Shown here one piece after another: positions 2 to 14,199 of a stretch of DNA of 64,000 bases. The stretch is from a virus. The stretch's first letter is position 1; each line of letters begins with the position of its first letter. Both the position numbers and the translations under genes were made by a program. Below the pieces are notes generated by a model. That model had not been told where the DNA came from. It saw nothing but the letters and a program-made list of their open reading frames with translations, and did no database searches. The stretch lies in the IMG/VR virus record IMGVR_UViG_3300009553_000019, positions 1 through 64,000 of that record. The stretch is one strand, 5' to 3'.

Positions 2-2644
2 GCTACTGGACCTCAAGGCGCTCAAGGAAATCAAGGCGTAACCGGTGCTACTGGACCTCAAGGAAATCAAGGTGTAACTGGTGCTACTGGACCTCAAGGA
101 AACCAGGGTGTAACGGGAGTTCAGGGTGCTACTGGACCTCAAGGAAACCAGGGTGTAACAGGGGCAACTGGACCAGCTGGATCTACAGGGGCAACTGGAG
201 CAACTGGGCCTCAAGGTGCAACAGGAGTTCAAGGCGCAACAGGACCAGCTGGTGGCGGAGGATCTGCTTCTGGTGCAGCCCTATTTCCAACCTCGGGTGC
301 TCTATTTAACTCTGTAGCACACTGGGGTACTGCTCCTTACATTAAGGATAGTCAGGTCATTCTTGATGATGTTGGAAATTTCACGAATGTCAGGTCTATA
401 CAGTTCAATGGGGCTACCTCTGGTGTTGGGCCTGTTCCAGTTCCAACTTCTATTGGAACTCAAACTGTAGATTTAACAAAAGGCCAAAAGCTTAGAGCCT
501 GGGTATCAACTGATACGACTTTTCGAATAATCCCACCTACTGGAGTGGGAAATTATCAATTACAGATTACCCATCTTTCGGACAACATTAACCTCTTTTG
601 GCCTTCGAGTGCTACCGGAGTAGTTTGGCAGCACAACTACATCCCATCTTTTAATTCAGCATCTGGATCAAATGACTTCGTAGCCTTGATAGGCGATGGC
701 TCAGTTGTTTATGGCTCGTTAGCTCCAAACTTTGGTGCATCTGGACCATTGCCTGGAGCTGGTGCTACTGGACCTCAAGGAGCTCAAGGCGTAACTGGTG
801 CTACTGGACCTCAAGGAGCAACAGGCGTTCAAGGCGCAACAGGACCGACAGGGGCTAGGGGTGTAACGGGTGCTACGGGACCACAAGGCGTAACTGGTGC
901 TACTGGACCTCAAGGAAATCAGGGTGTAACTGGCCCAACTGGACCACAAGGCGTAACCGGTGCTACTGGTCCTCAAGGAAATCAGGGTGTAACTGGAGCA
1001 ACAGGACCCGCTGGACCTCAAGGTGCTACGGGGGTTCAGGGTGTAACTGGTCCAGCGGGTGGTGGCGGGTCAGCATCTGGAGCTGCAATAGCACCTACAG
1101 CAGGAGCTACATTCAACTCATTAGCCCGTTGGGGTACTGCCCCCTCCCTCAAAGATAGTCAGATAATTCTTGATGATGTTGGCAATTTAACAAATGTCAG
1201 ATCAGTACAATTCAACGGTGCTACGATAGGGATTGGACCTGTTCCTGTACCCACAGCTATTGGAACTCAAACTGTAGATTTAACAAAAGGTCAGAAACTT
1301 AGGGCTTGGGTATCAACTGACACGACTTTTCGAATAATTCCACCTACTGGCGTGGGAAATTATCAGCTACAGATTACACATCTCTCTGATAATATTAACC
1401 TGTTCTGGCCATCAAGCGCCACGGGGGTAGTTTGGCAGCATAACTATGTCCCATCCTTTAGTTCTGCCTCTGGTGCGAATGATTTTGTAGCTCTAATAGG
1501 CGATGGCTCAGTTGTTTATGGCTCGTTAGCTCCAAACTTTGGTGCATCTGGGCCACTACCAGGGGTTGGTCCAACAGGTCCAGCTGGAGCAACGGGAGCA
1601 ACGGGACCTGCAGGTGCTACTGGAGCTGGTATTCAAGGTGCTACTGGAGCTGCTGGCCCAACAGGCCCTGCTGGTGTAACTGGTGCTACAGGACCTCAGG
1701 GTGCTACAGGACCTCAGGGAGTTACGGGTCCAGGAGCTGGTGCTACAGGACCTCAGGGAGCAACAGGTCCAACAGGACCAGCGGGTGCTACTGGAGCATT
1801 ACCTGCTAGCATAAACCTCCCTATAGGGACTGCGTCTTTCACTGGTATTTCGATCCCTACAGTTAGCTCTGGAACTTTTACAGCAGTAGCAACTAGCTTC
1901 GCAAATGTAACGAATAAAGCAGTAGGTAACCTCATTGGGTTATTTATTGGCCAATTCTCGTCTACTGGCCTTTCGACTGGTCTAGGTGCTCCAGTTCAAG
2001 CAAGAGTAGTTATTGATAATATCCCAGGCATTCCGTTTACACTGTCTTTACAAGGTGTAACTGGAATCAATGCTCCTATAACTGCTCAGCATGTGATTAG
2101 TTCTACAAACGTAGGTGGACATACTGCTTGGATTGAGGTATCGAAGCAGGGAACATCAAGCAGGCAAGTTTTCGTATCAGGTAATCTCAGTTTAATCTCT
2201 CTTGAGGCTGCAATAGGTGCAACTGGTGCTACTGGCCCATCTGGTGGTCCTCAAGGAGCTACTGGGGTTCAAGGAGTAACTGGTTCTACAGGTCCAGCTG
2301 GAGCTCAAGGGGCTACAGGGCCAACTGGACCAGCTGGTGCTACTGGACCTTATGTAGGTACATTTAACGGGACTAGCTACCAACTTGGAACAGGAGATAT
2401 CCTTTTTGAGGCAGCCCTTTTAAGTGGTCGAGATTATTTCGCTATGGGGGTTAGGACTGGATTATCTGAGATTCATGTCCCATCTGGAACAGGGCATGGT
2501 GTTGGCTTTATTGGAAATGCTGCTACAGCCCCACTAGGAACTGTTAAACCAACTGGTGGTATTTTGATCTGGGCATATGCGGCTACATCTTATTCAAACC
2601 TGTATATGATGAATGGTAATGGTGGGATAACAATCCTAGGTTAA
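2..2644 (+). CDS. Collagen-like (Gly-X-Y, GATGPQ-rich) virion fibre protein with duplicated globular domains; 5' end lies upstream of window
   Basis: The frame of the 545..2644 ORF is open back to position 2 (GCT ACT GGA CCT CAA GGC = ATGPQG...). Long G-X-Y runs alternate with globular segments. Confidence 0.85.
242..1570 (+). repeat. Internal tandem duplication (807-nt period) of a ~170-aa globular domain plus collagen linker
   Basis: 242-763 aligns with 1049-1570 ([10 protein letters not shown]...WGTAP..KDSQ..LDDVGN...[16 protein letters not shown]). 689-744 and 1496-1551 are 56 nt identical. Confidence 0.9.
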
Positions 2645-2645
2645 C

Positions 2646-3044
2646 ATGAAATATCTGTATAACGTTCGTTCAGAAACCGATCCAAACACCTCTCAACCTT
2701 CTACTACAGGTGTTACTACAGTAAATGTAGCAACCTTTAATAGTTGGCTGCAGCTTGGTGGTGTTCCAAACAATGCGATCATTTATGTAAAGGGAATCCT
2801 AATTGGCGTAGATGGTTCGGGAAACGCAGCCACTATTGAAGTGGCCAGACCATTTAAATTCTCGTCAGGTGTTTTATCTGCATTAGGCACCTTAAACGTT
2901 ATTACAGGTGCTACTGGAACCTTAGCTACAGCTATCGCATCTCTTGTGGCTAGCAGTCCAGCTATTGTTCTTCAAGCGACTGGGGTTTCAGCTACAACCA
3001 TAACTTGGTTTGGGCATATTTATCTCTTTTCTAATTCATATTAA
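2646..3044 (+). CDS. Hypothetical beta-rich virion/fibre-associated protein
   Basis: 132-aa ORF, T/S/G/A rich, starts 1 nt after the fibre stop. Confidence 0.6.
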   Translation: MKYLYNVRSETDPNTSQPSTTGVTTVNVATFNSWLQLGGVPNNAIIYVKGILIGVDGSGNAATIEVARPFKFSSGVLSALGTLNVITGATGTLATAIASLVASSPAIVLQATGVSATTITWFGHIYLFSNSY

Positions 3045-3055
3045 TCAGTGATTAG

Positions 3056-3787
3056 ATGTCAATTAATGTAGGCGCACATACTCATGCAGGGGCATTATTT
3101 GGTGCATCATCTGTAACTTCGGGAGCTATAACAACCCAAGCTACTGGAAGTACCTTTTTTATTGGGGTGGGGGTTTACAGTTCTGCGAATACAATTACGA
3201 TAGCTGATAATAAGTCGAACAGTTTTCCCCAGGTTGGGACAAACGCTTCATTTGCTCCAGATAACCAGCTACAGCTAGCAATCTTTCTCTGTGTAAATGG
3301 CTCTGGTGGTGCTGGTCATACATTTACTGCAAATTTATCACCAAACTCTGCAGTTGGGTTGTGGGTGGTAGAGATTACTGGAGGAGCGTTATCTGGTATT
3401 TTAGATCAAAATCCAGCAGCTAATAGTTCAACAACTGACCCATACACCTCTTCAGTAACGGGAACGTTATCCCAACCCAACGAGCTGTTAATATCCCAAA
3501 CCTTAACCTATACTAGTGCAGATGGTGAGGTTCTTAACTGGGGTAACAGCTTTACACCGTTAGATGCTGAAGGCCATGGTTCAGATTCAGTTACCGGTGG
3601 AACTGCTTATCGGATAGTATCTTCAGCAACAACTTACCAAAGTTCTTTTTCAGCTAGTGGTGGGGTTACATCAGGAGCTCTTACTGGTATATACTCATTC
3701 AAAGAACTTGGAGCTGGATTGATATCTCGAACGACTCAAATGTCAAGCAGGAATGCATTGGGCTCTAGAAGCATTTTGGCTGCTTAA
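3056..3787 (+). CDS. Hypothetical beta-rich virion protein (two similar halves, short basic C-terminal tail)
   Basis: 243-aa ORF with S/T/G-rich composition typical of phage fibre/decoration domains. Confidence 0.6.
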   Translation: MSINVGAHTHAGALFGASSVTSGAITTQATGSTFFIGVGVYSSANTITIADNKSNSFPQVGTNASFAPDNQLQLAIFLCVNGSGGAGHTFTANLSPNSAVGLWVVEITGGALSGILDQNPAANSSTTDPYTSSVTGTLSQPNELLISQTLTYTSADGEVLNWGNSFTPLDAEGHGSDSVTGGTAYRIVSSATTYQSSFSASGGVTSGALTGIYSFKELGAGLISRTTQMSSRNALGSRSILAA

Positions 3788-5178
3788 TGTCTATTTTCCC
3801 TTTAAGTGTTAGCAGCTCTAGTCGATATTTTCAAACAGCTGCTGGTGCACCGTTCTTATTTAACGAATGCACTGGGTGGGGTTTATTTCAATCTCTATCT
3901 ACAGCAAACGCTAAAGATTTTGTTGATAGGAGGGCAAATCAAGGTTTTAATACCATGAAGATTAGTGTCATATCTTTTGATACTAGTTTTCCTGGATCTC
4001 CTCCTGATTGGCAAGGAGTACCACCTTTTACTACTCCGGGGGATTTTTCTACTCCTAATTCAACATATTTTTCACACGTGGATGATATGTTGGATTACCT
4101 AAGGACCAAAGGTTTTTTTGTGTGGTTGGTGCCTGACTATTTAGGTTATTACGCTTTTACTAACCAGGGGTGGGGAGATACCATTAACACACAAAATAAC
4201 ACTACCAAAATGGCATCTTTTGGAACCTATCTTCAATCAAGATATGGATCAAGAGATCATGTCGGGTGGTTGCTAGGTGGGGATCAGGTTCCTGGAACAG
4301 GGGTGGGATCTAGCGTTAATCTTTCACTGCAAAACTCGCTAAAGAATGCACTTCTTACAGGTAATACACTTCCAGTAGCTGGTCACTATGCTGGTGATTA
4401 TCAAATTGGTGGTGGATCAATTGATCCCATTCCAGGAGGGATGCTATCCACTGATTTTGCTAATGATGCTTCTGTGATGAGTTTTAGATCATTATATTCA
4501 TATAACCCTTCTAGCGGTAGCCCACCTTATTCAAGAATTCTAACTGGTTACAATGCTTCACCAACTTTACCTACAGGACCTATTGATCAGAGTTATGAGT
4601 CAGGTCCTGGGATTGGGCAGCCACAAGGTGACCCATTAACGATTAGGCGAAAACTTTGGCAGGCTATGTGTTCTGGAGCTTGCAGCCTTTCTTACTGTTA
4701 TGGTTCATTGTGGTATCAATTTTCCGATTGGGTAAGTGGTTCTCCAGGGCAAAGTCAAGCAGTTCTTGCTTATCAGTTTTGGTCAAGTATACCTCAGCAT
4801 ACACTAGTACCCGATCAAAGCAGTTCAGTATTCACTTCTGGTAGAGGGACGTATTTAAACGATAGCTACATCTGTGGAGCTTCAACACCTACTCTAGCGA
4901 CTGCCTACTTCCCCAATGGTGTAGGTTCATCTTTGGTAGTAAATATGTCGACATTCTCAACTAAGATGAGAGCGAGGTGGTTTGATCCTACAGCTTCTAG
5001 TGTTTCTACAGGTTTTACGTTAATTTCAAATTCGTTGCCAAATAGTGGGACACATTCATTCAGCACACCTGGCGGAAATTCAGGTGGGGATAGTGATTGG
5101 CTGTTGATATTGGACTCAGTTACAAGTACCGTTTCCCCAACTTTCACCATGGCACCTTTTCTTTGTAATAACTTTTGA
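3787..5178 (+). CDS. DUF4038/apiosidase-like (GH140-like) glycoside hydrolase with C-terminal beta-sandwich; ends in APFLCNNF
   Basis: Motifs RYFQTAAGAPF..., R..QGFN, PNSTYFSHVD, RYG....WLLGGD and the C-terminal ARWFDP...DWLLIL. No signal peptide. Confidence 0.75.
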   Translation: MSIFPLSVSSSSRYFQTAAGAPFLFNECTGWGLFQSLSTANAKDFVDRRANQGFNTMKISVISFDTSFPGSPPDWQGVPPFTTPGDFSTPNSTYFSHVDDMLDYLRTKGFFVWLVPDYLGYYAFTNQGWGDTINTQNNTTKMASFGTYLQSRYGSRDHVGWLLGGDQVPGTGVGSSVNLSLQNSLKNALLTGNTLPVAGHYAGDYQIGGGSIDPIPGGMLSTDFANDASVMSFRSLYSYNPSSGSPPYSRILTGYNASPTLPTGPIDQSYESGPGIGQPQGDPLTIRRKLWQAMCSGACSLSYCYGSLWYQFSDWVSGSPGQSQAVLAYQFWSSIPQHTLVPDQSSSVFTSGRGTYLNDSYICGASTPTLATAYFPNGVGSSLVVNMSTFSTKMRARWFDPTASSVSTGFTLISNSLPNSGTHSFSTPGGNSGGDSDWLLILDSVTSTVSPTFTMAPFLCNNF

Positions 5179-5235
5179 TGTACATCAAATGTGTAATCAG
5201 GACAGACTAGGTACCAGAAGTTGGCTAATTAACTT

Positions 5236-6657
5236 ATGACAACTTTTCCATTGAGTGTTAACAATTCTGGTAGATACTTACAAACAGCAAGTGGCTCTCC
5301 TTACCGAATCAAGTCTGATGCAGGGTGGATTACCCAATGCAATTTCGATACCTCCACTCAAAATTCATATCTTGATGGAATCAAGGCGTTAGGCTTTAAC
5401 GCCACCACCTTGATGGGTATTGTTAAGAACTCTACTAGCTGGGGTGATGTAAACGAACCCGCTAATTTTGACGGTGATCAGCCATTTACTGGTGCTACTT
5501 TCTCAACCCCAAACTCTGCTTATTTTTCTAAACTAAGCGATTATATTGACAGAGCCAACTCCCGTGACTTAGGTGTTATGTTTTTTCACACCTATGCAGG
5601 GGCTGGATCTGATGGTTGGGATGCTGATTTAATTGCTGCTAGCAACTCCACCTGTTTTAACTGGGGTGCCTATCTTGCTTCTACATTCACTCAACCAAAT
5701 ATTATTTGGATGCATATGGGTGATCGAACAGCAAGTGGCACATCATTAACAAGGTGGCAAAATATCATAGCAGGGATTCAGAGTGTTAGTCGTAATCGAT
5801 TAGCAGGATGCGAGCTAGACGGACCAAACTCGATTATAACTAGCCAGTCTGGTGTAACTCTCGGAGTAAACCCTTCAACATCAGACATGCAAATTAGCTC
5901 ATTTTATGGGCAAGGTGCGAGTCAAAATGGGTGTACTTATGTAGAAGCTTATTCTTCTTACCTACTTTCAGTGGCTGGTACATGTGGGCCAAGTTATCAA
6001 ACTGAGCCTAACTACACAAATGCTTTTTATGACCCTAAGAATTCTAGATCTGATATTAGATCTATGATTCACTGGGCCTTGTCCAGTGGGGCTTTGGGTG
6101 GGACGAATTTTGGTGAGGATTTGAGGTGGGATGGAAGGCCAGGAATTCTTACCTCTCTAACTGCATCTGCCACTATTGATCAAAGTTATTGCAACGCATT
6201 CTATGATTCGATAAAGTGGTGGTTGTTAAGGCCCAGTGGTACCAGTTCAAGTAGTCCAATCTCAGGTGCTGGTAGCTATGGTACTGCGAACTGTGGTAGA
6301 ACCCTCATTGTTTCGGGTCAGGGGAGTGGTACTTCTTTTATTTCGGCTTGTATGACAAGCGATGGATCACAACTTTTCTCTTACATTCCACCAACTGGTA
6401 CAGGTACAACTACCTTTAGTGTCGATTTACAGAGTATGGCAGGTTCTACTGTATTTCGATGGTGGAACCCCACTACTGGAATTATGGGATCGGTGATTGG
6501 TACTTACCCCAAAACTGCTTCATCACAGTCTTTTACCACACCTGGAGATAACGGAACAGGTACTAATGACTGGTATTTAGTTGGTACTTTAGTGGCTGAT
6601 ACTTTTCCAGCTTCGACTGGTTTGGTGACTGCCCCCTTTCTTTGTGCTAATTTTTGA
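5236..6657 (+). CDS. Second DUF4038/GH140-like glycoside hydrolase paralogue; ends in APFLCANF
   Basis: Colinear with the previous gene (FPLSV..S.RY.QTA.G.P, FSTPNS.YFS, WWNPTTG, FTTPG.N....DW.L). Confidence 0.75.
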   Translation: MTTFPLSVNNSGRYLQTASGSPYRIKSDAGWITQCNFDTSTQNSYLDGIKALGFNATTLMGIVKNSTSWGDVNEPANFDGDQPFTGATFSTPNSAYFSKLSDYIDRANSRDLGVMFFHTYAGAGSDGWDADLIAASNSTCFNWGAYLASTFTQPNIIWMHMGDRTASGTSLTRWQNIIAGIQSVSRNRLAGCELDGPNSIITSQSGVTLGVNPSTSDMQISSFYGQGASQNGCTYVEAYSSYLLSVAGTCGPSYQTEPNYTNAFYDPKNSRSDIRSMIHWALSSGALGGTNFGEDLRWDGRPGILTSLTASATIDQSYCNAFYDSIKWWLLRPSGTSSSSPISGAGSYGTANCGRTLIVSGQGSGTSFISACMTSDGSQLFSYIPPTGTGTTTFSVDLQSMAGSTVFRWWNPTTGIMGSVIGTYPKTASSQSFTTPGDNGTGTNDWYLVGTLVADTFPASTGLVTAPFLCANF

Positions 6658-7313
6658 TGCAATATCAAACTAATTTTCCCTTAAATCAGTCGCCAATTTC
6701 CGAAGGCGGGGTGTGGGGACATGTAGGTCTTGATTGGACCTTGGTTAACACTTCTGGCGGAGTTGCTTTTGGAACACAGACTGGTTCAGATGGTTTTAAT
6801 GACTCTTATGCCTTACTCCAGTCCACCTACGGGGACACTCAAACTGCTACTGGTGTAGTATCAAGAACTGGTGGTGCTATTACTTCAGCACACGCAGAGG
6901 TAGAATTACTTCTTAGATGGACAGATCAAGCTCACTTTTCTAGAGGATATGAATTCAACTTAGCTTTTGATGGAAGCTATGCCCAGATTATTAGGTGGCC
7001 AGGACCATTAGGCACATCACTCGGTGATTTTACCTATATTGCTACAGCTGGTGGTTTGGGTACAATTAATGACGGTGATGTTTTGATGGCAAAAGCTATT
7101 GGAAATAACCTGTTTTTGTACCTAAATGGATCACTTCTTTGTTCAGGAACTGATACTGTTTGCCCATCAGGGTTGGTAGGGATTGGTTTCTATTGTGATG
7201 GTGGGGCAGTTGGGAGTAAGTATGGCTTTAAGAATGCAACATTCACAGATGGCCAAAACTCTCAGAATTACCAACCATTTACTTCAGCTCCCTTTCTTTG
7301 CACTAATTTCTAG
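6657..7313 (+). CDS. Beta-sandwich (possibly lectin/ConA-like) virion protein; ends in APFLCTNF
   Basis: ATG overlaps the previous stop (TGATG). Beta-strand pattern such as LFLYLNG...GLVGIGF. Confidence 0.55.
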   Translation: MQYQTNFPLNQSPISEGGVWGHVGLDWTLVNTSGGVAFGTQTGSDGFNDSYALLQSTYGDTQTATGVVSRTGGAITSAHAEVELLLRWTDQAHFSRGYEFNLAFDGSYAQIIRWPGPLGTSLGDFTYIATAGGLGTINDGDVLMAKAIGNNLFLYLNGSLLCSGTDTVCPSGLVGIGFYCDGGAVGSKYGFKNATFTDGQNSQNYQPFTSAPFLCTNF

Positions 7314-7343
7314 CTTGGTATAATTACGACAAGTAGGGAAACG

Positions 7344-9779
7344 ATGCAAAGAAGTCTAATTTCAGCATGTTTAATCGTTCGAAACGAAGAACTCCGTCTT
7401 GAGCAGTGCTTAAAATCATTACGACCTCATGTTGACGAGTTAGTAATCGTTGATACAGGTTCAAACGATAAAACCCCAGAAATTGCTAGACAGTTTGCGG
7501 ATAAGTTTGAAGTTTATCGATTTTGCAATGATGATCTTGATCGTATCGAAGACTTTGCTAAAGCTAGAAATCGAGCTTTAAGTCTTACCACCCACCCCTG
7601 GGTGTTTTGGGTAGATGGGGATGATGAAGTCGTAGGTGCAGAATATCTACGAGAGATGGCTTTTGAGGCTGATCAAATCCCTCAATACAAAGGCCATGGC
7701 ATTCAGATATTCATGAACTATGAATATGATTACGATGCTAGTGGAAACGTGACCTGTCTCTTACGTAGAGAGCGGTTAATCAAGAATAAAGATTCATTTC
7801 ATTGGGTAAACCCAATCCATGAATTACTCGTACCAAAGCCTGATCAGAATGTAGGGATCTTATATCGATTTGATAAGACAATTATCAAGCACCGACGGCA
7901 AGGAAAAACCTCTTCTGATCCCGAGAGAAATCTGAGGATTTTGAAGAAGTGGTATGAAAAGCATGGAGAGTCAGATCCTCGACAGCTGTACTACCTAGGG
8001 GTGGAGTATGGTGGAAGAGGGTACCATGAAGAGAGCTTATCAATCCTGAAGCGGTATTGTAGACTCTCTGGCTGGGATGATGAAAAGTGTAACGCGATGT
8101 GCCAAATCTCTGCAACCCATCTCATTCGAGAAGAATTTGATGAAGCTATTGCATGGGGTTTGCAAGCAACTACTGTTAGGGAAAACTGGTTCGAGCCTTA
8201 TTATGCTTTACTAAGAGCCTTCTATTGCAAAGCAATGAAAAGCCAATCTACTCGTGACTGGGAATTGGCTGTTCATTTTGGGAAGGTTGCTACATCTAAG
8301 CCAGTTACCGATAGTTTGCTTTTCATTAATCCTATGGACCGGAATGTTGAGGTTTTCAGATACCTCAATTTTGCTTACAATCGAATTAATCAGGTTGTCG
8401 AAGCTTTGAACTGTTGCGAAGAAGCGTTGAAAGCAGTTCCAACAGACCCTCAATTTTTACTAAATGCTGCGGTATACAGAGCTGCAAAAACTGTATATGA
8501 TCTGAAGGTTAACTCTCAAATTCTCCATAAGACTCTTCAAGAAATGCCATCTGATTTGCATCCCTTGAAGTTAGATCAGTTAAAAGTAATCACAGATCTG
8601 TTGGGAATTTCAGAAGCTTTAGAACAACCTAAGATAGCTCAATCTACTACATCAATTGCTTTACCAACCCACAAAGAACGAAAATTTGATGGTCCATTGG
8701 ACATCGTTTTTTGGATTGGTGACGGAGTTGAAAAATGGTCACCAGACAGTCTAAAATCTGGCTTGGGTGGTTCAGAAACTGCTGCGATATACACCTCTAA
8801 GCTTCTAGCTGCTAGAGGACATAAGGTTCGTGTTTTTGCAGAAGTTGGTGGTGTATTTGATGGTGTTGAGTATTTACATCACTCAAAGTTCAAGGATGTT
8901 GAGTGTGATGTGTTCATCAGTTCTCGTCAGCCATGGGTAGTGCAGCAATCATTCAAGGCAGGTTTGAAACTACTCTGGATTCACGACGTACATTGTGGAA
9001 CATACACTCAACAAATGCAACAATGGTTGCTAAAGTTTGATGCGGTATTGGTGCTATCTGAGTGGCACAAGAAGTTTATCCTAGAAACTTATCCCTGCTT
9101 AAATCCTTCAATTGTGATTAAGACAGCAAATGGTATTGACCACTCAAGATTTTCAGGTCCTGCTATTAAGCGAACTAACAAATTGGTGTATTCAAGCTCA
9201 CTTGATCGTGGGTTAGAAGCACTTTTGCAAATGTTTCCTTCTATTCAAGAGCAAGTTCCTGGAACGGAACTACACGTTTATTACGGATTTGACTGGTGGA
9301 AGAAGTTTACCGAGATGAAGGGCAACCCTCCACAAGAACTTGCTAGAATTGACGCAGTTGAAAAAGGGTTGAAACAGCCGGGGGTTTTCTTTCATGGTAA
9401 GCAAAGCCAAGAAGTCATAGCCCAAGCTTTCAAATCGGCTAAGGTCTGGGCCTACAGCACCTGGTTCCATGAGTCCTTCTGTATTACCGCTCTTGAAGCC
9501 CAAGCTGCTGGGGCAGTGCCTGTTACTACAGCTATTGCAGGGTTGTTGGATACTGTGGGTAGTGGATTCTTGATCGAAGGAGATTGTACTCGACCTGGCT
9601 ACCAAAAGCAGTTTATCGAACATGTAGTAACTCTGCTATCTCACGAAGGTATTAGAGAGCAGTGTTCAGAGACTGCAGTTCAATTTGCATCAAAATTTAC
9701 TTGGGAATCAGTAGTGGATCAATGGGAACAGATCTTCAAGCAAGAATTTAACATGGTTCCACTACTACCAGCTGTTTAA
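7344..9779 (+). CDS. Multidomain glycosyltransferase: GT2 (GT-A) + TPR region + GT4 (GT-B)
   Basis: ISACLIVRNEE, VIVDTGS.D.T, DFAKARN, WVDGDDE, IHE, ERNLRIL, YYLG (SunS/SgtA-like GT2-TPR). C-terminal GLGGSE, YSSSLDRGL, ESFCITALEAQAAG (GT4 EX7E). Confidence 0.9.
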   Translation: MQRSLISACLIVRNEELRLEQCLKSLRPHVDELVIVDTGSNDKTPEIARQFADKFEVYRFCNDDLDRIEDFAKARNRALSLTTHPWVFWVDGDDEVVGAEYLREMAFEADQIPQYKGHGIQIFMNYEYDYDASGNVTCLLRRERLIKNKDSFHWVNPIHELLVPKPDQNVGILYRFDKTIIKHRRQGKTSSDPERNLRILKKWYEKHGESDPRQLYYLGVEYGGRGYHEESLSILKRYCRLSGWDDEKCNAMCQISATHLIREEFDEAIAWGLQATTVRENWFEPYYALLRAFYCKAMKSQSTRDWELAVHFGKVATSKPVTDSLLFINPMDRNVEVFRYLNFAYNRINQVVEALNCCEEALKAVPTDPQFLLNAAVYRAAKTVYDLKVNSQILHKTLQEMPSDLHPLKLDQLKVITDLLGISEALEQPKIAQSTTSIALPTHKERKFDGPLDIVFWIGDGVEKWSPDSLKSGLGGSETAAIYTSKLLAARGHKVRVFAEVGGVFDGVEYLHHSKFKDVECDVFISSRQPWVVQQSFKAGLKLLWIHDVHCGTYTQQMQQWLLKFDAVLVLSEWHKKFILETYPCLNPSIVIKTANGIDHSRFSGPAIKRTNKLVYSSSLDRGLEALLQMFPSIQEQVPGTELHVYYGFDWWKKFTEMKGNPPQELARIDAVEKGLKQPGVFFHGKQSQEVIAQAFKSAKVWAYSTWFHESFCITALEAQAAGAVPVTTAIAGLLDTVGSGFLIEGDCTRPGYQKQFIEHVVTLLSHEGIREQCSETAVQFASKFTWESVVDQWEQIFKQEFNMVPLLPAV

Positions 9780-9837: not shown

Positions 9838-10935
9838 ATGAGATTAGCGATGTTTTACGGGAAGTGGTCATCTAGCAATCGTGGTGGGTTTGCAGATTTT
9901 CCCAACCTATATACGAGCAAAGGTTTGACTGGATCTGAAAGTTCTTTTTTTAACCTAGTTAGAGGTCTTTCAGAGCGTGGGCATCAGATTGATGTGTTTT
10001 GTGATACACCAAAGCCTGCAAAATTTGGTGATGCTACAATTTACCCGTTGAGTACTGCAGTAGGTGAGTATCAAGCATATGTCAGCTGGAATGAACCTGA
10101 CATCTTGAGAAACTTCAAAGGAAAGCGTATTGTAGCTCAGCAACTAAACGATTTCAACTACTGCAAACCTGGATTCGATGACTTCGTAGACTACTACATT
10201 AGCCCATCGAAAGCTCATGCTAATCGAATGCTAGAGTGGGGTTGTGTAAGTGAGTCAAAAGTTCGAGCTATCAGTAATTCAATCAACCTCGATTTGTTAC
10301 CGACGGGTTTGGAGAGATCTTCAAATCGCTTGATTTACTGCTCTTCTCCAGATCGTGGACTTCATCAGGCATTACAGATTTTTGGACTTGCACGACAAAA
10401 GAAAAAAGATTTAGAGTTGCATGTTTTTTATGAATTCAAAAACTGGTTTGATGTCAACATTAACCAGTGGAATTCAGGAAACCCAATTTCGGACGCATTT
10501 GGAAACCGTGCTAGATACATTGCTGAATGCTTTAGCCGTTTAGGGGTGAATGGGGAGAATGGTTTATTTCTTCATGGCAATGTATCGAATAAGCAGATGC
10601 AGGAAGAGCTTGCAAAATCTACCATAATGCTTTACCCCTGCGATCCTGTAAACTGGACTGAAGGGTTTTCAGTTTCAACCATGGATGCCTGCGCTAACGG
10701 TTGTGTTCCGATGATTACTGGAGTGGATGCATTGGGTTCAATTTACGGAGAAAGTGGTGCATTACTTCATCCTGTGAATTCACCAAGTTATCTTGGAAAT
10801 TGGGTCCACAACCTACTTTGGTTGTTGCAGACAAATTTAAATGCTAGTCGAGAACAGGTTACCAATTTTGCTAAGAATTTTGATCGAAAGATCATTGCTG
10901 GAGAATGGGATTCGTTCTTCCTTGAGGTAATTTGA
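9838..10935 (+). CDS. GT4-family glycosyltransferase, paralogue of the C-terminal domain of the previous gene
   Basis: GLTGSE, YCSSPDRGL, EGFSVSTMDACANG. RBS GAGG upstream. Confidence 0.85.
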   Translation: MRLAMFYGKWSSSNRGGFADFPNLYTSKGLTGSESSFFNLVRGLSERGHQIDVFCDTPKPAKFGDATIYPLSTAVGEYQAYVSWNEPDILRNFKGKRIVAQQLNDFNYCKPGFDDFVDYYISPSKAHANRMLEWGCVSESKVRAISNSINLDLLPTGLERSSNRLIYCSSPDRGLHQALQIFGLARQKKKDLELHVFYEFKNWFDVNINQWNSGNPISDAFGNRARYIAECFSRLGVNGENGLFLHGNVSNKQMQEELAKSTIMLYPCDPVNWTEGFSVSTMDACANGCVPMITGVDALGSIYGESGALLHPVNSPSYLGNWVHNLLWLLQTNLNASREQVTNFAKNFDRKIIAGEWDSFFLEVI

Positions 10936-12461
10936 CTGTATCTGTTGATAGCTTAACCCGGTTTAAACCCCAACCAAAAGAGACTGTTCTTTTAATCACC
11001 CCACCATCAGCTTTTTTGCTGGATGAACGGGTGTTTATGAGTTTGGGGATTTTGAAAGTAGCTGCAGTTCTAGAAAAAGCAGGGCACTCAGTAGAACTTC
11101 TTGATTTATCTGGAATTGAGAACTATTTAACAGTTGTAGCACTTCAAGTAGCATCTACAAAAGCTAAAGTTGCAGCACTTACTATTACAACCCCTCAACT
11201 TCCAGCGGCCAGTCTAATAGTAGATCAAATTAGAAAGGTCAGACCTGATCTTCGAGTCATTGCTGGTGGTCCACACATCACTTTAGTCCATTCTGCAGTA
11301 AAGTTAGAAGTGAAGCTGGGCAGGGTCGGTAGAGCTCATAAAGCCTATGATCGACTTGTTCAGCTCTTTGACACTATGGTGTCAGGAGATGGTGAGATAT
11401 CTATCTTTGCAGCAATAAGAGAAGATGCGCCACAGCTAATTGATGCAGATGATCCAAAAAGTGGGTTGTTTATGTCCAACGCTGATTATGGCGAGTCACC
11501 ATTTCCTGCTCGACACTTAGTCGACGTAACCAGCTATAAATACAGCATTGAAGGATTTCCTAGCACCAGCCTAATAGCACAGTTGGGTTGTCCGTTTGCA
11601 TGTGGATTTTGTGGTGGTCGAAATTCGAAAATGCTTCGAATGATACGGACTCGATCCACCGAATCGATTGTTAACGAAGTTGAAATGCTCTATAAAACGT
11701 ATGGTTTTACTGGCTATATGTTCTACGATGACGAGCTAAACGTTAACAAATCTATGGTGAGTCTGATGAATGCCATTGGAGATCTCCAAGAACGCTTGGG
11801 AGTGGAATTTCGTCTTCGGGGATTTATCAAATCAGAGCTGTTTAACAAAGAGCAAGCTCGAGCTATGTTCAGAGCTGGGTTTAGGTGGTTGTTATGCGGG
11901 TTTGAGGCAGCGTCTCCTCGAATTCTTGAAAATATCAACAAGAAAGCTACCCTAGAAGATAACACCAAAGTCTTAGAAATTGCAGATAGGGTTGGTCTGA
12001 AGGTTAAGGGGTTGATGTCGGTTGGCCATCCTGGTGAATCTGAAGAATCCATCCTAGCTCTTAGGGATTGGTTGTTAAAGGTAAAACCCGCTGATTTTGA
12101 CTGCACAGTAATTACAACCTATCCAGGTACACCTTACTATGATGAAGCAGTTCCTCATCCGTCGTTGGAGGATGTCTGGACCTATACCTGTAAGAAATCT
12201 GGCGACCAGTTACATTCTTATGATGTAGACTTTACTAAGGTTGCTGAGTACTATAAGGGTGATCCTGATGGGGGTTATCACTCATATGTATTTACAGATC
12301 ACTTGTCAGGCCAGCAGATTGTAAAACTTCGAAATCAAGTTGAAACAGAAGTTCGATCTGCTTTAAACATCCCATTTAACCCTGGACATGCTTCAGTTAG
12401 ATATGAGCATTCTATGGGTCAGTCAGAGTTACCTCAGTTCATTCTCCGTAAAACTCAGTAG
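10932..12461 (+). CDS. Cobalamin-binding radical SAM enzyme (class B methyltransferase-like)
   Basis: N-terminal B12-binding domain (SLGILKVAAVL, VIAGGPHIT, GDGE), CPFACGFC (CxxxCxxC), FYDDE, GFE, INKK, GHPGES, YPGTPYY. Confidence 0.9.
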   Translation: MTVSVDSLTRFKPQPKETVLLITPPSAFLLDERVFMSLGILKVAAVLEKAGHSVELLDLSGIENYLTVVALQVASTKAKVAALTITTPQLPAASLIVDQIRKVRPDLRVIAGGPHITLVHSAVKLEVKLGRVGRAHKAYDRLVQLFDTMVSGDGEISIFAAIREDAPQLIDADDPKSGLFMSNADYGESPFPARHLVDVTSYKYSIEGFPSTSLIAQLGCPFACGFCGGRNSKMLRMIRTRSTESIVNEVEMLYKTYGFTGYMFYDDELNVNKSMVSLMNAIGDLQERLGVEFRLRGFIKSELFNKEQARAMFRAGFRWLLCGFEAASPRILENINKKATLEDNTKVLEIADRVGLKVKGLMSVGHPGESEESILALRDWLLKVKPADFDCTVITTYPGTPYYDEAVPHPSLEDVWTYTCKKSGDQLHSYDVDFTKVAEYYKGDPDGGYHSYVFTDHLSGQQIVKLRNQVETEVRSALNIPFNPGHASVRYEHSMGQSELPQFILRKTQ

Positions 12462-12512: not shown

Positions 12513-13045
12513 TGATAATAGCACCTATTGGAGTGACTTTTCCATTAATTCTAACGATCTCTCAAGAAGGGATTGGTGGATTAGTTGGACAGAGCCCTAC
12601 TGTAGCTCTTAGAAATACCTTAACCAATACCTACCTTGATTGGTCGGATGGGACATTCAAAGTATCTGGTTGGGGAGTTAAGTATCAACCTATGTCTGAG
12701 ATCGAAAGAGGGAATTATCAACAGTTGGTGATTCATTCATCTACCCCAGGAATCGTATCAGGTATGTTCTTGTCTGCCGAGTACAACCTAAATGGGGCTT
12801 CTAATGTTAAGGGTGAGGCTAGTGATCTAGTCTACATCTCTGGTGGGGATAGTAGCTTAGATGTTGCTTTGCTGCGTAAGGGTATGACTAACCGAATGGA
12901 GGAGTTCGGTGGAGATCCCGGTCAGCTGATCTTGTATGACGACGACGGAGTTACACCTCTTATGCGTTGGGAGCTGAGAGATGAAAGTGGAGGGCTTGTA
13001 GTTTCTACTGTTGGCCAACCTTCTCGAAGAGGTCCTGGAGTATGA
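12512..13045 (+). CDS. Hypothetical virion structural protein
   Basis: 177-aa ORF coupled (ATGA) to the next gene. Confidence 0.6.
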   Translation: MIIAPIGVTFPLILTISQEGIGGLVGQSPTVALRNTLTNTYLDWSDGTFKVSGWGVKYQPMSEIERGNYQQLVIHSSTPGIVSGMFLSAEYNLNGASNVKGEASDLVYISGGDSSLDVALLRKGMTNRMEEFGGDPGQLILYDDDGVTPLMRWELRDESGGLVVSTVGQPSRRGPGV

Positions 13046-14199
13046 GAAGTGGGTTTATAGCTAGAACTGGTGTAAACTACACCCCACTAGGTCAAACATT
13101 TGGGTTGGGGTCTGTAGGGACTGAAGTTGTACCCACTCCAGTTCAACCACCAAAGCATCGAAATATTTGTGTTCCAGGCTATTGGGGTAACAACCTGAGA
13201 TGTAGAATTGGGCAAGAGTCTACTCAGCTTAAGATAGCAGCAGCTTTAAATGATGAGTTGCTTGCAACAGGAGTTAGAGTTGCCTTATGGTTACCTGTTC
13301 ATGAATACCTGAAGCTTACAGCACCCAAGAATCAAACTGGTGGGGATATTGCTACAGCAGGAACCTTGAAATGCTCTTGTGTTAAAGAGTCGGGTCAGCA
13401 TGCAGATAGACGGTGCAATAGCTGTCATGGCACAGACTTCATTCCCGGCTACTTGAAGTTTGGTTATCAAACGCTATGGATGTCTTCTATCAGCCATGGT
13501 TGGACAGTTACGAATTTAACTCAGAATACAGTACTCAAACCCTACCGCTATGAACTTAAGAGTGGAGCTACTGTAGGCACTCTTGAATCTACTGATCTGT
13601 TTTTTACAAAATCAGTAACCAATGGGGACTGGGATTATCGAAATGATTTTGTTCTTCGAGATGCTGCTAATAATGCTGTGACAGTTTTCTTTAGTGTTAA
13701 TCAAGGCGCAAATTGGTATGACATAGCAAACCTTCAGTCAATAGCTCCAGCTTCTGGCAGTATTAGGTTTAGAATCAATCTTAGCAGAACGTCAACATCG
13801 ACTCCATCACCGGCTTGGGAGATGCTTAGAGTTCGTTATCCTACGATAGCTGAAAATGGAAGAGTAGGGCCATGGATTTTGATCTTGAAGAATGTAATGA
13901 CCAAAACTGATATCCAAGATCTTCGAGGGATTATCCAGGATGGTTCGATGTCGTTTTGGACAGCTCCACTGTCTTTATTTGACTGCAACATTCAGAAGCA
14001 GAGTTCGATTGATGACCCAATCAATCTTTTTTCATTAATTAAAGAGCCTGCTTTTATCGAGTTTCTGGATAGCGTAAGAATCGGACAAAGATGGTCGATA
14101 ACGAAAGTGAATTATTCCGACTCACTAGACTTTTTAACCAGGCAGTTCTTTTCCAGCAGACTACAGCAAGAACTGGAATTTACTTCGCTAGTGTTTTAA
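13042..14199 (+). CDS. Putative head-closure/neck protein with Zn-binding motif
   Basis: CSC...CNSCHGT.FIPGY motif of the kind seen in large-myophage neck proteins; position upstream of sheath. Confidence 0.5.
   Translation: MRSGFIARTGVNYTPLGQTFGLGSVGTEVVPTPVQPPKHRNICVPGYWGNNLRCRIGQESTQLKIAAALNDELLATGVRVALWLPVHEYLKLTAPKNQTGGDIATAGTLKCSCVKESGQHADRRCNSCHGTDFIPGYLKFGYQTLWMSSISHGWTVTNLTQNTVLKPYRYELKSGATVGTLESTDLFFTKSVTNGDWDYRNDFVLRDAANNAVTVFFSVNQGANWYDIANLQSIAPASGSIRFRINLSRTSTSTPSPAWEMLRVRYPTIAENGRVGPWILILKNVMTKTDIQDLRGIIQDGSMSFWTAPLSLFDCNIQKQSSIDDPINLFSLIKEPAFIEFLDSVRIGQRWSITKVNYSDSLDFLTRQFFSSRLQQELEFTSLVF

Follow-up and report, generated by a model that had tools for sequence, protein, structure and literature searches.

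Three adjacent genes and their common C-terminal octapeptide

The DNA studied here comes from a large uncultivated phage recorded in IMG/VR as IMGVR_UViG_3300009553_000019, and the window that we analysed comprises positions 1-64,000 of this record, which as a whole is a linear fragment of 152,626 bp, about 80% complete (CheckV). At the beginning of the window lie, in this order and on the plus strand, the genes of a collagen-like fibre, of a small protein that we call p132, of a 243-residue protein (p243), of three proteins with glycan-active folds to which we refer as heads 1 to 3, of an enzyme composed of a GT2 glycosyltransferase domain, a tetratricopeptide repeat (TPR)-like middle part and a GT4 glycosyltransferase domain (GT2-TPR-GT4), of a further GT4 glycosyltransferase, and of a B12-binding radical S-adenosylmethionine (SAM) enzyme. 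Start and stop codons overlap at the p243/head 1 and head 2/head 3 junctions. The three head genes, consecutive open reading frames (ORFs) at 3787-5178, 5236-6657 and 6657-7313, encode proteins that share a near-identical octapeptide, APFLCxNF, directly before their stop codons; this peptide, here called the tag, is the subject of the present analysis.

The tag reads APFLCNNF, followed by TGA, in head 1 (5152-5178), APFLCANF, followed by a TGA that overlaps the ATG of the next gene (TGATG), in head 2 (6631-6657), and APFLCTNF, followed by TAG, in head 3 (7287-7313). It is preceded in each case by a Ser/Thr/Pro/Gln-rich linker of 10-14 residues, which is SVTSTVSPTFTM (5116-5151) in head 1 and DGQNSQNYQPFTS in head 3. 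The octapeptide, its linker and its conservation at the level of the peptide had been pointed out in an original prediction made from the letters of the sequence, and our reanalysis reproduced the tags, their positions and their codons exactly. As the record is only about 80% complete, three copies are a lower bound. A contig of 200,475 bp with the same proteins exists elsewhere.

Could such a recurrence be accidental? A six-frame scan found the pattern PFLC.NF at the three ORF ends only, both in the window and in the whole 152,626-bp record, and a pairwise comparison of the last 10 residues of 365 ORFs gave 7-8 identities out of 10 within the trio and at most 5 for every other pair. The tag is real and far beyond chance. 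Its codons differ from copy to copy: Ala-Pro is encoded by GCA CCT, GCC CCC and GCT CCC, Cys by TGT, TGT and TGC, Asn by AAC, AAT and AAT, and the last Phe by TTT, TTT and TTC, so that five of the seven conserved positions (Ala, Pro, Cys, Asn and the last Phe) vary synonymously, as do the stop codons. The distance from the tag to the next gene also differs, being 57 nt, an overlap and 30 nt, respectively. Because these five codons vary without a change of amino acid, and because heads 1 and 2 agree in 7 of 8 tag positions against 26% identity overall, the sequences show selection on the peptide, not on the DNA.

The proteins that bear the tag differ in fold. Head 1 (463 residues) and its paralogue head 2 (473 residues, 26% identical) both match, above cut-off, the Pfam families PF13204 (Apiosidase/DUF4038, the GH140 catalytic domain; E = 7e-39 and 2e-27) and PF12904 (Collagen_bind_2, a C-terminal beta-sandwich; E = 4e-7 and 5e-6), and are by these matches classed as GH140-like (apiosidase-like) hydrolases. 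Head 3 has 218 residues counted from its ATG, with an alternative TTG start at 6654, and matches no Pfam family. Its AlphaFold2 model, built on an alignment of 33 homologues, is a concanavalin A (ConA)-like beta-sandwich with a mean predicted local distance difference test score (pLDDT) of 92, for which Foldseek returned as best matches CBM66 (E = 7e-8), GH16 glucanases and carbohydrate-binding modules (CBMs) of phage baseplates; a lectin or glucanase fold of the CBM66/GH16 type is thus predicted. That the third protein is unrelated to the first two, as had been proposed, is borne out by this difference in fold. Besides the protein in the window, head 3 has 88 homologues, and head-3-like domains are common in phages, with 52 loci, where they form the distal part of large fibre proteins or stand alone as proteins of 210-260 residues.

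The closest relatives of all three heads are secreted bacterial proteins, equipped with signal peptides or lipoboxes, low-complexity linkers and sometimes a C-terminal domain of the type IX secretion system (T9SS). The phage heads begin exactly where the mature domains of these homologues start, and inspection against the secreted homologues revealed no signal peptide on any of them, as the original prediction had said. The heads are carbohydrate-active folds related to secreted bacterial proteins, and the tag is a lineage-specific C-terminal peptide on three captured glycan-active proteins.

Is the tag a part of these domains or an addition to them? In all 205 homologues checked, the conserved domain ends ahead of the phage linker, with the hydrolase homologues ending at ...SDWLLILD and the lectin family at ...FSFTSFSAxxL, and in the head 3 model residues 201-218 form a disordered tail with pLDDT values of 44-50 and no secondary structure. 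Because the homologues stop before the linker and the modelled tail is disordered, the tag is best described as a free peptide appended on a flexible linker; the possibility, raised along with the original prediction, that it folds back as an integral strand of each domain is not borne out. None of the 205 homologous proteins carries the tag, which formally counts against it by the standard of conservation in homologues that had been set at the same time. This standard is a weak one here, since docking peptides differ between phage groups and no close relative bearing the same genes is on record.

Searches at the level of DNA gave a similar picture. The pattern GCN CCN TTY YTN TGY NNN AAY TTY TRR, worth about 35 bits, had 4 exact matches in IMG/VR viral contigs, at least 117 loci in metagenome contigs and 71 matches in species-representative genomes; none ends a comparable protein, for the metagenome contigs among the matches listed. 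These counts are about those of chance, and the tag was thus not found outside one genome in the three collections, among the matches listed. It is likewise absent from the 52 viral loci with head-3-like domains and from 31 further viral loci with p243-like domains, none of which has any other terminal tag shared by non-homologous ORFs. A phage collection contained no matching DNA; head 3 and p243 had no homologue in it, and head 1 only two weak fragments.

An adjacent module associated with fibres and glycan-active heads

Where, then, should a partner of the tag be sought? The phage has few relatives. Rctr197k is a distant one, with 38% identity in a baseplate wedge protein and the sheath, and shows no shared C-termini in the 99 kb examined. 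The nearest relative found is an IMG/VR fragment (L262) whose sheath and tube proteins are 57% and 75% identical; at its syntenic site, upstream of the homologue of ORF 13042-14199, it has other genes and none of the set that runs from the fibre through p132, p243, the three heads and the glycosyltransferases to the radical SAM enzyme. Because the whole set is absent from this site, the comparison of gene order identifies the region of about 1-12.5 kb as an accessory cassette insertion, and the reader of the tag is therefore most simply sought inside this cassette.

Within it, p243 attracts attention as a candidate carrier or adaptor. Its gene (3056-3787, plus strand) ends in a stop codon that overlaps the start of head 1. 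The AlphaFold2 model (pLDDT 81) consists of two beta-sandwich domains followed by a disordered tail (residues 220-243), and the protein has 15 metagenomic homologues. Among solved structures, likeness is weak (Z <= 6) and directed to trimeric TNF/C1q-like receptor-binding heads, and a Foldseek search of the PDB for this fold gave nothing clear. Predicted viral structures, however, gave 46 matches with E <= 0.001, up to a TM score of 0.78, several of them annotated as mycobacteriophage 'minor tail proteins'. In the ESM Atlas, the fold is found fused to GH99/phosphoesterase and PhoD enzymes, the PhoD cases being mostly viral.

The genomic company of p243 homologues is telling. A GH140-like gene directly precedes one of them with overlapping stop and start codons (L126), a head-3-like lectin gene directly precedes another (L134), and a polysaccharide-lyase-like gene lies two genes upstream of a third (L260). 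The closest homologue (48% identical) follows a 611-residue collagen-like fibre and a 51-residue ORF and is itself followed by a head-3-like gene (L132/L133), and in L273 the homologue is directly preceded by collagen ORFs. The two modules also occur in one chain: in a single protein of 680 residues (L214), a p243 domain is joined by a repeat linker to a head-3-like domain, and its gene comes directly after a collagen ORF and a 136-residue ORF, in the order seen in the window. In L210, a 1097-residue fibre has a head-3-like C-terminal end and the next gene begins with a p243 domain. The 31 further viral loci agree in that the p243 domain begins no later than about residue 70 of its protein, and by residue 25 in most whole ORFs; 14 of these loci have additional domains C-terminal to it. 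Thus p243 is recurrently linked with collagen-like fibres and glycan-active heads, either adjacent or fused, and the position of its domain in these ORFs has the layout of a conserved N-terminal anchor or adaptor with variable distal parts.

One internal segment of p243 resembles the tag itself. The string AIFLCVNG (residues 75-82, 3278-3301, plus strand) lies inside a predicted strand spanning residues 72-83 and holds C79, the sole Cys of the protein. Among 220 plus-strand ORFs with 50,386 residues in all, it is the only other site that agrees with APFLC.NF in at least 5 of 7 positions, and residue shuffles yield 0.23 such sites per genome. To find it in a gene adjacent to the tagged ones, with p roughly 0.01 given adjacency, is suggestive. 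In the p243 family, the segment follows the pattern x-[FY]-x-x-x-N-G-x-G-G-x-x-H-T, with the Phe and the Asn conserved.

Some further features of these families deserve mention. The invariant residues of p243, namely D51, K53 and N55, N81, G84, G85, H88 and T89, and E106, suggest in the alignment an active site or a ligand-binding site. At the C-terminus of many p243 homologues, an Ala/Gly-rich linker leads to a short hydrophobic tail, such as LLLLGMGR, LPLLGAG or LGLLGVG, perhaps a terminal docking peptide of a second kind. Many of the head-3-like proteins that stand alone in phages, in turn, have N-terminal extensions of 10-20 residues with Arg, and two loci (L231, 7944-9441; L233, 4736-6233) each encode two tandem stand-alone paralogues with the common N-terminal peptide MV[ST]AR.FSG; such extensions may serve as docking peptides in those phages.

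Docking, glycosylation and other readings of the tag

What can be discerned from these observations about the role of the tag? We favour, at about even confidence, the view that it is a docking peptide which mounts the three heads on one carrier of the collagen-fibre module. This is because the heads have no other anchor and start at the mature N-terminus of their bacterial relatives, because the tag sits at a free end on a flexible linker and is common to three unlike heads, because the cassette contains a module of carrier type that is elsewhere fused or adjacent to the same heads, and because the docking of phage depolymerases by short peptides is established, with experimental validation (PMC6872550, PMC13352976). 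In other phages there is one head per p243, fused or adjacent, and no tag; here, three heads face one p243, and a common plug would be a simple means of fitting three different surfaces to one site.

In the scenario that we envisage, the phage would have taken two GH140-like hydrolases and one ConA-like lectin or glucanase, all of them carbohydrate-active domains, from secreted proteins of bacteria, removed their signal peptides and added the same C-terminal peptide to each. On its flexible linker of 10-14 residues, APFLCxNF would then plug all three into one site of the fibre module. Among the proteins encoded here, the receptor would most likely be the adjacent p243, which elsewhere forms an N-terminal carrier module fused to or encoded beside such heads; as a specific partner, however, we propose it only tentatively. 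Contact could perhaps be made by a tag strand added beside the AIFLCVN strand, or by a Cys-Cys link formed after lysis. We infer that the heads are part of the virion, that the tag binds a protein partner and that this partner is p243.

The original prediction had likewise proposed that interchangeable heads are attached by a plug-in tag to one and the same scaffold of the virion. This is supported in part: the tag is a free, disordered appendage, the heads are carbohydrate-active and docking peptides have precedents. A disulfide to the repeated globular domains of the fibre is excluded, as neither the fibre (880 + 309 residues on record) nor p132 contains any Cys, and the better candidate is p243, which had been named only as a target for docking calculations.

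The nearest precedents are the docking-peptide systems of K1E/K1-5/SP6, KP32, KP34, Menlow and PhiK64-1 phages (Leiman 2007; Latka 2019, PMC6872550; Latka 2026, PMC13352976). Secondary depolymerases of K1-5, SP6, KP32 and KP34 phages are docked by conserved peptides, 7-11 residues long, to an adaptor or branching domain (PMC6872550), and docking of phage depolymerases by peptides has been validated experimentally (Latka 2026, PMC13352976). As here, a short peptide is common to otherwise unrelated glycan-active heads of one phage; in those systems it varies between phage groups and allows several specificities per virion. Their peptides, however, are N-terminal, are carried by trimeric beta-helix tailspikes and bind a T4gp10-like domain, whereas the present one is C-terminal with a conserved Cys and is carried by TIM-barrel hydrolases of bacterial type and a ConA-like domain. 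An N-terminal placement of the K1-5/KP32 type is not found, the N-termini of the heads beginning directly with the catalytic or lectin domain. Neither does p243, a two-domain beta-sandwich with weak matches to solved structures (Z <= 6) and likeness to minor tail proteins, have a demonstrated likeness to T4gp10. By analogy, the tag has about an even chance of doing at the C-terminus what the 'conserved peptides' do at the N-terminus of Klebsiella and K1-5 phage depolymerases.

A looser parallel is the cohesin-dockerin cellulosome, in which glycoside hydrolases and carbohydrate-binding modules share a C-terminal docking element on a scaffold. A dockerin, however, folds into a module of about 70 residues whose duplicated loops bind calcium, as opposed to a peptide of 8 residues, and no cohesin-like domain was identified here. 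As the appendage measures about 20 residues in all and Pfam finds no dockerin, the tag is not one itself. More speculatively, and with rather low probability, the phage could possess a minimal cellulosome-like display, in which an 8-residue plug loads any captured glycan-active domain onto the p243 of a glycosylated collagen fibre, its Cys forming a disulfide with C79 after lysis or being S-glycosylated by the GmaR/SunS-like enzyme encoded downstream.

Several observations weigh against docking to p243. The tag is carried by a single genome only, in scans of viral, metagenome and genome collections and among the matches listed, and it is C-terminal, whereas known docking peptides are N-terminal. 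Its conservation at 7 of 8 positions exceeds what simple one-face strand pairing needs and would fit a site recognized by an enzyme as well; a protein glycosyltransferase with a TPR part is encoded immediately downstream and could equally read it. In other phages, heads stand beside p243 without any tag, so that association is possible without one. The match of AIFLCVNG was noticed post hoc, its Leu and Cys are not conserved in the p243 family, and the string is located inside a core strand of the model. Nor are there Cys-tailed neighbours beside P0222 and P0220, the p243 homologues whose Cys falls in this column or close to it.

The strongest alternative is therefore that the tag is a recognition or acceptor site for the GT2-TPR-GT4 enzyme, a protein of 811 residues (7344-9779, plus strand). 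We consider this unlikely on balance, though still a serious contender, and it could coexist with docking, the two functions not being exclusive. In such a case, the TPR part would bind the free C-terminal peptide, the GT2 domain would glycosylate either the tag Cys (S-linked) or Ser/Thr residues of the linker (O-linked), and the GT4 domains and the radical SAM enzyme would extend and modify the glycan. The enzyme's gene begins 30 nt downstream of the third tag, Ser and Thr abound in the linkers, and TPR domains such as that of Pex5 read C-terminal peptides. In a PDB search, the first 177 residues of the enzyme match GmaR, the flagellin O-GlcNAc transferase of Listeria (E = 8e-21), whose TPR domain is thought to bind the protein substrate (PMC9638930), and SunS-family S-glycosyltransferases come next (E = 1e-7 to 3e-8). 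The enzyme thus shares with GmaR and SunS the GT2 (+TPR) architecture of transferases that act on protein and peptide substrates, including on Cys. A further parallel is offered by the mycobacteriophages Che8, Corndog and Myrna, which have glycosyltransferases beside structural genes and in which two virion proteins, the capsid and tail-tube subunits, are described as bearing glycans at their C-termini (Freeman 2023, cited in PMC12619734), although the papers citing this work report no shared 8-residue motif.

The GT2 domain is thus closest to GmaR and next to the SunS-type enzymes that the original prediction had invoked, but the proposal that the TPR-bearing enzyme reads the tag is weakened by the distribution of its family. 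Full-length homologues (31% identical over 98% of the length) lie right after the major capsid gene in 42-kb podoviruses, where 17 kb examined contained no shared C-terminal peptide. Because these homologues, TPR part included, occur in phages without such a tag, the family does not appear to depend on it, and the enzyme is probably a glycosyltransferase of virion proteins. Similarity to SunS is limited, the family model TIGR04195 (NCBIfam) scoring 40.5 bits against a cut-off of 350 and aligning with residues 6-96 only, the nucleotide-binding part. Moreover, the most obvious substrate, the Thr-rich collagen fibre, is without a tag, and the tag is hydrophobic and aromatic, unlike known glycocin acceptor loops. 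In head 3, the AlphaFold2 model places the tag Cys in the disordered tail of a large folded protein, with no helix predicted beside it. Finally, glycosylation gives no reason why just the three heads should be marked.

Much less probable is that the tag serves as an address for another compartment or machine, be it loading into the capsid interior or handing over to a protease adaptor or export system of the host. Encapsulin cargo peptides, too, are short C-terminal peptides placed behind a flexible linker. Like these and the encapsulation peptides of microcompartments, the tag would direct unrelated enzymes to one assembly, and the cassette stands between the missing capsid genes and the neck and sheath genes. 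However, the consensus is a different one, those peptides bind the shell lumen while there is no sign here of an interior location, a capsid is hardly a sensible place for glycan hydrolases and a lectin, and the links to the minor-tail-protein-like module point to the fibre or tail. Nor do other sorting signals fit. Sortase- or exosortase-type signals (LPXTG, PEP-CTERM, GlyGly-CTERM) need a transmembrane helix and a basic tail, while the tagged proteins end right after the motif; the C-terminal domain of the T9SS is folded and has about 80 residues, and PF18962, present on some bacterial head 3 homologues, is absent from the phage protein; and no PDZ domain that could serve as a reader was found in the record. 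The Cys is the fourth residue from the end, as in a CaaX box, but the next two residues are N/A/T and N, not aliphatic, and the record, at about 80% completeness, has no match to the protein prenyltransferase family PF00432, so that this idea of the original prediction can be dismissed. Bacterial hosts are not known to possess CaaX prenyltransferases.

We give hardly any credence to a functionless tag, left at the 3' ends by recombination or gene conversion or representing a translated DNA or RNA signal: the genes are adjacent and a promoter-like site (TTTGCA-16-TGgTATAAT, 7297-7324; a 10/12 match with an extended -10 element, 20 nt before the ATG of the GT2-TPR-GT4 gene) overlaps the codons of the third tag, but such sites are neither more frequent than in shuffles nor enriched in the region, the three copies stand at unequal distances from the following gene, the paralogues retain 26% identity overall but 7/8 in the tag, and the synonymous variation at 5 of 7 codons rules out a signal at the nucleic acid level.

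If the tag is indeed a docking plug, it would offer phages a route to enlarge their set of surface enzymes from ordinary secreted bacterial hydrolases and lectins, by dropping the signal peptide and adding eight residues; neither a trimeric tailspike scaffold nor an anchor domain at the N-terminus would be required. For phage engineers, it would be a very small C-terminal plug-and-play handle beside the N-terminal conserved peptides of Klebsiella phages. If it is read by the GT2-TPR-GT4 enzyme instead, it would constitute a portable glycosylation tag and, should its Cys be S-glycosylated, the first S-glycosylation tag on phage virion proteins. In either case, the p243 module with its recurrent pairing with glycan-active heads would represent an undescribed family of phage adaptor or anchor modules.

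The fibre and the neighbouring glycan genes

The cassette opens with the collagen-like fibre (2-2644, plus strand), whose 5' end is cut by the contig edge and which contains repeated globular domains. At the other end of the record, a collagen-like ORF comes after the terminase gene (149571-151700) and is cut off where the contig ends (152626). This ORF is not in frame with the one that opens the window, and it was probably in collagen repeats that the assembly broke. The record lacks portal and capsid genes, which places the cassette between these missing genes and those of the neck, sheath and tube.

The fibre is followed by p132 (2646-3044, plus strand), a small phage protein that is paired with the C-terminal domain of the fibre. 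Its family comprises about 40 small viral representatives, of which the nearest (L258/L259, 51% identical) comes after a homologous collagen-fibre C-terminal domain, and domains of this type occur twice at the C-terminus of proteins of 682-765 residues. Probably, p132 is a fibre tip or a partner in fibre assembly.

Downstream of the heads and the GT2-TPR-GT4 gene, the glycan cassette continues from 9838 to 12461 on the plus strand with the GT4 glycosyltransferase (9838-10935) and ends with the B12-binding radical SAM enzyme (10932-12461). In podoviruses from Manatee Spring (MW202524.1, 3147-5432; L125), the homologue of the GT2-TPR-GT4 enzyme is followed by further transferases and methyltransferases, a cluster that looks like a candidate for a widespread virion-glycosylation cassette. 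The best family scores of the radical SAM enzyme, HpnJ, BzaD and PhpK, all lie far under their cut-offs, and the enzyme may modify a sugar of the virion glycan.

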